Source: Chlamydiales bacterium
Lineage (GTDB): Bacteria; Chlamydiota; Chlamydiia; Chlamydiales; JBDQID01
Direction of reading: 5' to 3'
Assembly (NCBI GenBank): GCA_047611865.1
Contig: JBLFWS010000058.1
Location: 1 to 18,330, forward strand
Length of the DNA: 18,330 nt
The first letter of the stretch is position 1. Each line of letters opens with the position of its first letter. Below are positions 10,068 to 10,556 of the stretch, one piece after another. The position numbers were made by a program, and so were the translations under genes. Under the pieces are notes generated by a model. It searched no databases. It was not told where the DNA came from and saw nothing but the letters and a program-made list of their open reading frames with translations.

Positions 10068-10095
10068 CCCCATAGGTTCGTTAAGACCTATGGGG
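10068..10095. terminator. Stem-loop, possible terminator or 3' stabiliser of the plus-strand operon
   Basis: Perfect 10-bp stem CCCCATAGGT / ACCTATGGGG with an 8-nt loop, 40 nt after the stop at 10028. No clear U-tract. Confidence 0.4.
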
Positions 10096-10294
10096 TTCCA
10101 CCCAAAACCCCGGCAAAGGGCCAGCCCTCTGCACTCCCCTTTAGTGTCCGAACACTTGGAGGCGCTGTTAATTTAAGCATATCTTTTCTCTGCACTCGAG
10201 GAACTCCGTTCCTCTCGCAAGGCAGTCAGCACCATTGTACCAATGATACTGAATCGCTCCCACCTCCGGTGGTGTGACGGTACCTGTCACAATA
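10092..10294 (-). repeat. ~200-nt multi-hairpin repeat element, copy 1 (inverted relative to copy 2)
   Basis: Its reverse complement aligns to 10355-10556 at about 84% identity by hand alignment, including a perfect 38-bp match (10115-10152 vs 10496-10533). Confidence 0.92.
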
Positions 10295-10354
10295 GTGATC
10301 GAGGAAATAATCATTAGAACTTAAGAGAAGTGTACCAACTTTTTCTTGTATTCG

Positions 10355-10556
10355 TATTCTGACAGGTATCGTCACACCACCGGAGGTGGAACTATTCAGT
10401 GCAATTGGAACAATTGCGCTGACTGCTTGGCGAGAGGAACGAAGTTCATCGAGTGCTGAAGAAAAGATATGTTTAAAACAGGGACGCCTCAGGTTTTCGG
10501 ACACTAAAGGGGAGTGCAGAGGGCTGGCCCTTTTCTGGGGTTTGGGGCGAAGCCCC
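10355..10556 (+). repeat. ~200-nt multi-hairpin repeat element, copy 2
   Basis: Hairpins CCACC-GGA-GGTGG (10377-10389), TCAGTGCAATTG-GAA-CAATTGCGCTGA (10396-10422), GAGGAAC-GAA-GTTCATC (10434-10450) and GGGGC-GAA-GCCCC (10544-10556). Inverted homolog at 10092-10294. Confidence 0.92.

Follow-up and report, generated by a model that had tools for sequence, protein, structure and literature searches.

A gene-less inverted repeat doublet in a Chlamydiales genome whose outward strand probably folds as single-stranded DNA

Two copies of a hairpin-rich repeat lie back to back between two convergent genes on an 18,330-nt stretch of DNA from a Chlamydiales bacterium. This locus raises the question of what the repeat is, which strand of it folds and as which nucleic acid, and what spreads it. 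The whole stretch, referred to here as the window, is contig C58 of the source assembly (G000), which has a size of 3.59 Mb in 272 contigs and is 95.5% complete. Judged from sequence comparisons, the element is likely a REPIN-like, non-autonomous repeat that folds as single-stranded DNA and has an uncatalogued core and no known mobiliser.

Structure and folded strand of the doublet

The two arms were aligned at 10092-10294 (minus strand) and 10355-10556 (plus strand). They are 84.06% identical over an alignment of 207 nt, in agreement with an earlier sequence-only reading of outward-pointing arms of about 84% identity. That reading placed a 60-nt spacer between the arms. A spacer exists, but the arms extend about 25 nt further inside as a degenerate TTCRTATTCTGA head. 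The aligned left copy, of about 210 nt, occupies 10092-10300 (minus strand), with its head near 10300 and its terminal hairpin at 10092. The right copy occupies 10349-10556 (plus strand) and ends 7 nt short of the stop codon of a convergent nucleotidyltransferase gene. The AT-rich spacer at 10301-10348 includes the fading heads of both arms and can be aligned with the spacer of a sister doublet on contig C149. The left arm runs about 10 nt beyond its last hairpin up to a TTAA (10082-10085), as at C149, and a short fold-back palindrome is present at this junction (10070-10096). The flanking host genes are outside the element and each has its stop facing a repeat tail. They are a 308-aa ORF with no Pfam family on the left (9102-10028, plus strand) and an NTP-transferase family gene on the right (10563-11324, minus strand). 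Identical public contigs tile the locus (9300-10142, 10124-10228, 10227-10380, 10337-10487 and 10504-11300) without differences, making an assembly artefact unlikely.

The remainder of the window was also surveyed. The region 10563-15647 (minus strand) encodes the NTP-transferase, an inositol-monophosphatase/CysQ-like protein, a Peptidase_C26 protein and a 968-aa protein in which APS-kinase is fused to PPDK_N/PEP-utiliser domains, and adjoins a sulfotransferase-like gene and a methyltransferase gene. This set presumably resembles the Campylobacter phosphoramidate pathway (Cj1415-1418), with two steps fused here. Two proteins are encoded at 488-9071 (plus strand). One, of 562 aa, contains a proline-rich stretch resembling that of formins (sub-threshold Drf_FH1), and the other, of 2293 aa, has no Pfam family. 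Both look like candidate secreted host-interacting proteins.

Every hairpin listed in the sequence-only reading was located in both arms. Each copy begins with the conserved head motif CAGGTAYCGTCA, a CGTC-like tag, at 10275-10286 (minus strand) on the left and 10363-10374 (plus strand) on the right. This is followed by a 5' structured domain of the hairpins H2, H3 and H4, defined by covariance at 10189-10272 (minus strand) in the left copy and by covariance and pattern and model searches at 10377-10459 (plus strand) in the right copy, and found only in the source genome. H2 is CCACC-GGA-GGTGG (10260-10272 on the left, minus strand; 10377-10389 on the right, plus strand). H3 (10226-10252, minus strand; 10396-10422, plus strand) differs between the arms by two compensatory swaps and a T.G wobble, and has a GTA loop in the left copy and a 12-bp stem with a GAA loop in the right copy. 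H4 is GAAC-GNA-GTTC (10201-10211, minus strand; 10437-10447, plus strand), with a GGA loop on the left and a GAA loop within a longer interrupted stem on the right. The 3' core consists of GGGAGT, a SCAGAGGG/CCCTYTGS hairpin, a G-run and a terminal GNA hairpin. It was placed at 10092-10138 (minus strand) by covariance alignment and at 10510-10556 (plus strand), and is the part common to several phyla. A hairpin with a CTGG loop lies within 10115-10138 (minus strand) and 10510-10533 (plus strand), and H8, GGGY-GRA-RCCC, at 10092-10103 (minus strand) and 10545-10556 (plus strand). A putative hairpin H1 at the head was dropped, as its 5' arm is unconserved.

Covariation was examined in 25 near-full copies from the source genome, where it held. 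Paired cells made up 95.3% of the total and 12 of 40 pairs changed on both sides, compared to pairing of 35-49% in slid controls. None of 500 shuffles reached this result (the 5' half was also tested alone); relatedness of the copies inflates the shuffle test, and the pair count is the robust measure. The copy on C119, a full-length HMM hit, was left out of the set because it has no terminal hairpin, and the right copy on C139 and the copy on C192 are partial. H2 had been described as invariant, which is correct for the window pair, but it covaries across the family. The CTGG loop, read earlier as a CYNG loop, is typical of the family (CYNG-like in about 22 of 25 copies) but variable in other taxa. 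A long-range GTC/GAC pairing was compatible with the alignment (5 T.G cells) and had no two-sided change. Frame-breaking indels together with the compensatory pairs argue against a decayed coding sequence, one of the outcomes that would have overturned the sequence-only reading. Another was an Rfam match, and none was found over the element or the core near the gathering score. MiRNA-type Rfam hits on the palindrome of another chlamydial genome (G137) were below gathering scores and were generic hairpin matches.

Non-Watson-Crick cells in five hairpins, read on the outward strand, comprised 69 G.T, 8 A.C and 20 others. The excess of G.T over A.C identifies the outward strand as the folded one. 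The four triloops were GNA in 87, ANA in 11 and other in 2 of 100 cases across the 25 copies, and all four bases were seen at the middle position. According to the available text of PMC13037366, a review written by those who discovered DNA mini-hairpins, GNA and GNNA loops close by a sheared G.A pair and have a far higher stability in DNA than in RNA; they are found as mini-hairpins at the phage G4 origin, RSF1010 ssiA and the N4 promoters. The proposal of a one-strand structure with DNA-type loops is thus supported by the wobbles, the covariation and the 98 of 100 GNA or ANA loops. It was not matched by the folding energies. In DNA mode the whole-molecule z-scores did not separate the strands (-2.69 vs -2.59) and in RNA mode the separation was slightly better (-2.4 vs -1.84); these z-scores do not favour DNA over RNA, and the DNA parameters may not score GNA loops.

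The same wobbles would suit RNA equally as G.U pairs. With the larger strand difference in RNA mode, and the group II intron RT remnants in the genome, whose intron ends abut two copies, they could point to a structured antisense RNA that spreads by reverse transcription or is kept as a small RNA. Against this, three-base GNA and ANA loops dominate, with no GNRA or UNCG tetraloops, and no sigma-70-type promoter pointing outward was found above chance. There is no Rfam match, RT was not found in two other carriers of the core (G138 and G318), and the introns look like later insertions into hairpins. An antisense RNA is decidedly improbable. DNA is favoured by the loops, by the absence of outward promoters above chance and by the contexts of the core in mobile replicons, and the outward strand probably folds as single-stranded DNA.

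Of forty tail hits of the repeat, 5 point at contig ends and 4 belong to the interior of tandem arrays, leaving 31 independent tails for the count. Twenty-eight of these face a stop codon against 45% expected (p 2e-7; ORFs were called mechanically). This placement, and one terminator-like site on the right tail, would suit a role as terminators or 3'-end structures in the mRNAs of the adjoining genes. The strand that folds is antisense to the mRNA of the adjacent gene, which speaks against selection for an mRNA 3' structure, and in the mRNA itself the wobbles would be A.C mismatches and the loops TNC. In genomes other than chlamydiae the stop-facing bias was weak (34 of 58). It may explain where copies are tolerated but not their structure, and a role at mRNA ends is extremely unlikely.

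Spread in the source genome and the search for a mobilising enzyme

The arm had been suggested to belong to a non-autonomous mobile element, and copy number and arrangement in the source genome bear this out. BLASTN and a profile HMM gave 44 profile hits at 29 loci, including the 25 near-full copies, and a covariance model of the 5' half gave 29 matches at E < 0.05. The copies occur as singlets, as eight outward head-to-head doublets with 18-413 nt between the head motifs, as lone 3' halves and as tandem 3' modules, with four tandem duplications of period 92-97 nt. The doublet on C149 is a sister of that in the window. The left copies pair in the tree (93% identity, support 100/99), as do the right copies (90% identity, support 97/91). 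The spacers are alignable and the flanking genes unrelated, which is evidence that the doublet moved in its entirety. The doublet has therefore been copied as a unit to at least one other genomic site. Movement as a doublet in the source genome rests on this one sister doublet, and singlets are at least as common.

The C58 and C149 doublets cease to be similar at the TTAA, about 10 nt beyond the terminal hairpin of the left arm. A YTAA was present 4-17 nt beyond 14 of 34 ends compared to 16 of 136 control windows (Fisher p 2e-4; the copies are not independent), and several repeat ends have short fold-back palindromes. No target duplication was seen at the flanks of the C58, C149 and C18 doublets, for which there is no empty allele for comparison. 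No empty site or excision joint was found in public DNA contigs for the two regions examined. Replication-strand (leading or lagging) bias was likewise not found (8 of 19 singlets). IS200/IS605 targeting is replication-strand biased, unlike the singlets of this family.

Several other elements were observed next to or within the family. Group II intron ends directly abut family copies at C139:8905-9074 and C66:15850-15990 of G000, as would be expected if the introns seek out hairpins. A second repeat family rich in hairpins is present at C16:20330-20720, C9:29750-30900 and about 12 other places. It has the H4 module GAGGAACGAAGTTC in common with the element (14 of 15 outside matches), and its C9 copy contains a group II intron. 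A separate MITE with CCATACGCATC ends was found at C39:13238-13718, C84:11129-11356 and about 14 other places. Its insertions lie in hairpins of the form GGC/GGG-NNN-GCC/CCC that belong to several repeat families, and they apparently duplicate 9 bp of the target. A CCATACGCATC extension at C177 was considered as an end in common with the TnpA-type REP described below and was rejected, as it is this separate hairpin-inserting MITE.

The ORF and domain survey of the window found no cognate enzyme, as first stated, and no linked RT. The suggestion of a RAYT or HUH partner elsewhere failed: none of eight Y1 loci, four in G000 (on four contigs) and four in G138, is flanked by the repeat. The Y1 domain (PF01797) was not found in G137 and G315-G318, which are five of seven repeat-rich genomes, despite their 12-66 core copies. 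A search for the IS91 Y2 enzyme was uninformative, its control likewise giving no match. IS110 and TnpB were rejected as mobilisers since neither tracks the core. The small GIY-YIG (Ssn) genes of carrier genomes have no core within 1.5 kb and were also rejected. The same was true of RT, which was not found in G138 and G318, two of five genomes with the motif, and whose two loci in G000 have no core within 1.5 kb; a reverse-transcribed origin, also suggested earlier, gained no support. No enzyme family recurred among 147 ORFs beside 80 GTDB loci. The annotated ones were almost all housekeeping genes, the exceptions being two serine recombinases and one IstB-like protein.

The best resident candidate is the IS200-like TnpA of C24, which has the Y---Q--HH signature of subclass 1.2 (signature from PMC6006769). 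The available text of that paper describes this subclass as generally without typical IS200 terminal structures. REP of the TnpA type lies within 100 bp of the element family at 7 of 16 loci, mostly at the head (crude P ~1e-8; the junctions are partly homologous and not independent). Nested insertion explains this clustering as well as shared mobilisation does. G138 has a TnpA 52% identical to that of C24. C24-type TnpA is present in 14 of 151 Chlamydiota, of which the five tested lack the core. It is doubtful that this TnpA is the mobilising enzyme, and its role may perhaps be only insertion into the family. At C24:29050-30091 of G000 (L001) the TnpA is flanked by CCCAGGGCAACGCCCTGGG-type REP doublets, and REPs of this kind also flank its close relatives in G164, G124, G104 and G138.

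For the spread of the family we propose a trans-acting enzyme of HUH type that cuts and rejoins single strands. The outward strand would become single-stranded and fold, and the enzyme would recognise the terminal hairpins tagged by GGGAGT or GGGGT. It would cut near the YTAA about 10 nt beyond the last hairpin, and the piece would be rejoined beside the 3' end of a gene without target duplication. The internal linker contains a second YTAA, which would account for the tandem modules of 92-97 nt. The chances that a gene-less doublet with one-strand hairpins, likely folded as single-stranded DNA, is moved in trans by such a nick-and-rejoin enzyme appear evenly balanced, and the same even weight is given to cutting near the terminal YTAA. 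The Y1 loci, the five carrier genomes with no Y1, the TnpA-bearing chlamydiae with no core and the lack of strand bias all count against it.

The 3' core in other genomes and mobile replicons

The two halves of the element differ in distribution. The 5' half was confined to the source genome in searches of relatives, plasmids, phages, viral contigs, GTDB genomes and metagenomes. A strict 5' pattern gave no matches in viral contigs, GTDB genomes and metagenomes, and the covariance model of the 5' half matched only G000 among 61 genomes. BLASTN of the arm gave no match to plasmids and phages and a single 29-nt match in 40 relatives. A shorter head pattern gave 5 metagenome matches, none of which continues into H3 and H4, and these are read as chance. 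A strict 3' pattern had no viral matches and matched only G000 among 301 Chlamydiota. A looser 3' core pattern was found in 4 of 151 Chlamydiota genomes; the single match in G038 is probably chance.

The core forms repeats in two other chlamydiae, G137 and G138, neither of which has a CAGGTAYCGTCA-type head. Nine of ten loci fetched from G137 are minimal outward doublets of the core alone and the tenth is cut by a contig end. In G138 the core is joined to other 5' cargo in singlets, tandems and doublets. Neighbouring ORFs at L392:2-313 and L394:1-273 of G138 read into the repeat tail, which supplies C-terminal codons and the stop. GTDB genomes have at least 125 core loci. Taxa among the matches listed include Dehalococcoidia (Chloroflexota), Clostridia and Selenomonadaceae (Bacillota), Desulfovibrionaceae, Rhodovarius and one Parachlamydiaceae genome. 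The four unconstrained bases before the core pattern were GGGA in 99 of the 139 matches listed. Five carrier genomes have 15-66 core copies each and none with reversed-pattern controls. The wobble-compatible core occurred 223 times in five other genomes compared to 2 for the mirror-wobble form. In the Dehalococcoidia the core is inside units bounded by terminal inverted repeats, showing that other vehicles exist; we take these repeats to be IS-like. Inspected by eye, the genes between outward core pairs in G138 and G316-G317 looked like unremarkable host genes. No description of the core (GGGAGT plus hairpins) was found in open-access literature text, and a subscription paper, figure or supplement, such as the REP tables of PMC3733652 and PMC6006769, may have one. 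The available text of a preprint on mining non-coding elements (10.64898/2026.09.22.753630) has no mention of GNA, Chlamydia or inoviruses.

Viral contigs gave 48 core hits. Twenty are in DGR cassettes (three sequence families by eye), an assignment for which RT was confirmed in three representatives (RT-18 motif). Three are just upstream of rolling-circle Rep genes (Rep_trans or Rep_1), 2 just upstream of Mob_Pre relaxases (MOBV) and 3 near T7-type RNA polymerases, and most others are host-type repeats by look. A looser terminal-hairpin pattern, to which the window copies are not exact matches, was found at no fewer than 138 viral loci. Of 80 loci examined, 43 have an inovirus marker, and in all 43 the motif and the marker gene share a strand; these are related phages and not independent, and 9 have copies on both strands. 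In the MOBQ plasmid pNDM-BJ01 a similar hairpin precedes the large AAA-family gene, a small MOBV plasmid has two such hairpins, and the motif is absent from pUB110. In the inovirus-like contigs L281, L286, L320 and L326, small phage genes lie between two inverted copies of the GGGGT hairpin that are separated by about 1 kb. In the viral contig L070 (1470-1560), CGTAAC and an H2-like GGA hairpin directly precede the core, a shortened form of the head-to-tail layout of the present element.

The element had also been read as a possible single-strand origin. Positions in mobile replicons lend this circumstantial support for the 3' core, which in some viral and plasmid contigs may form a strand-specific multi-hairpin region upstream of a dso or oriT, but not for the chromosomal copies of the window genome. 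The same positions underlie the main rival to an HUH-type enzyme, in which the core is a single-strand signal recognised by the host (a priming site, second-strand start or protective fold) and is carried by any vehicle without a dedicated enzyme. DDE-type MITE ends, doublets, and phage and plasmid origins would then all be vehicles. The viral hits before Rep and Mob_Pre genes and inside DGR cassettes agree with this, as do the strand of the inovirus hairpins, the core inside the Dehalococcoidia units, the lack of a recurring enzyme family beside the GTDB loci and the mini-hairpins at the G4 origin, ssiA and the N4 promoters reported in PMC13037366. A host signal alone, however, leaves the spread without target duplications in the source genome unexplained. 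The inoviruses are also interrelated, with both-strand copies in 9, and the looser pattern is a near relative that is inexact on the window copies. Absence from pUB110 and a core in only 4 of 151 Chlamydiota also count against it, and this reading is unlikely. It is partly compatible with spread by an enzyme.

A broader reading is tentative and only slightly less unlikely. The core may be a cross-phylum single-stranded DNA signal, serving as a priming or landing site for inoviruses, rolling-circle and mobilisable elements and DGRs. It would be the parent of a third REP-like superfamily, beside GTAG and CGTC, that needs neither RAYT nor Ssn and spreads through a host pathway or enzyme new to description. 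If so, the chlamydial folded DNA of about 210 nt with its closed multibranch domain would be the most elaborate form of the signal.

Comparison with known repeats and single-strand structures

The element was compared to known systems as described in the available text of the cited papers. It fits neither a classical MITE, an Rfam family nor a retron, having unlike ends, no match and no linked RT. Unlike DDE-type MITEs, its singlets have unlike ends, and no target duplication was seen at the three doublets. The closest likeness is to REPIN/BIME repeats with RAYT (PMC3116915, PMC6006769). These are also extragenic inverted doublets with a spacer, multi-copy and copied as a unit, and they share tandem arrays, mosaics with other REPs, hairpins of single-stranded DNA type and no target duplication seen. 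The arms of the element, however, measure about 210 nt and contain at least six hairpins, compared to 20-40 nt for REPIN. The foot tetranucleotide GTAG/GTGG is absent, the element having instead the head CAGGTAYCGTCA and the core tag GGGAGT. No RAYT is flanked by the element and several carriers have no Y1 domain. The REPIN-like reading therefore holds for movement of the doublet as a unit (C149, and the 9 of 10 doublets in G137), but not for the tag or for a cognate RAYT.

The head resembles CGTC REPs (PMC3733652) and NTS/SRM motifs (PMC11893778), which have CGTCA just 5' of a hairpin, lie downstream of genes and have no dedicated transposase known. CGTCW is directly 5' of H2 in 24 of 25 copies, and the element could accordingly be a CGTC-tagged motif that depends for its spread on a small single-strand nuclease of the GIY-YIG type (Ssn). 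The published SRM pattern, however, matched 0 of 25 copies exactly, 0 with one mismatch and 3 of 25 with two. H2 has a 5-bp stem and a 3-nt loop compared to 8-9 bp and 4-5 nt in the published motifs. No repeat-flanked SsnA gene was found; the sole GIY-YIG hit in the source genome is a 671-aa frame and the small genes of other carriers are not near the core. The tags of the element face inward, and TT dimers are rare for CGTC REPs (PMC3733652). The part of the element conserved across phyla is at the opposite end, and the repeats of G137 and G138 have no CGTC-like head. A relationship to the CGTC/Ssn system is very unlikely.

TIRtron TIRs with GGGGWSAS (PMC3733652) likewise have long inverted repeats, a G-rich tag and repeat families. 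The tag of the element is GGGAGT or GGGGT and not GGGGWSAS, and the class-2 Y1 gene of the source genome (C112) has its own unrelated inverted repeats. The DGR target hairpin or cruciform (PMC3240598) is, like the element, a GC-rich DNA hairpin just past a stop, and the core is at this place in 20 viral DGR loci. DGR hairpins have 4-nt GRNA loops on the sense strand, whereas those of the element have 3 nt and are on the antisense strand, with no TR/VR or RT near it. The G4 origin, RSF1010 ssiA and the N4 promoter (PMC13037366, PMC10378824) have one-strand hairpin strings with GNA mini-loops, and in mobile replicons the core precedes Rep and relaxase genes. The element differs from these as a dispersed chromosomal repeat, and its sequence had no match in pUB110.

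How REP-like repeats spread in genomes that have no RAYT is still to be explained, as PMC3733652 states for CGTC repeats. The present family is a large, covarying and strand-specific case, with defined ends and a core common to single-stranded DNA replicons. These ends and this core make both the question of which enzyme cuts the element and second-strand priming testable with short oligonucleotides. Should the core not be a general signal, the family is one more lineage-specific hairpin repeat of a repeat-rich chlamydial genome. Should it be one, a feature that is common in phage and plasmid origins but has no name would gain an annotation.
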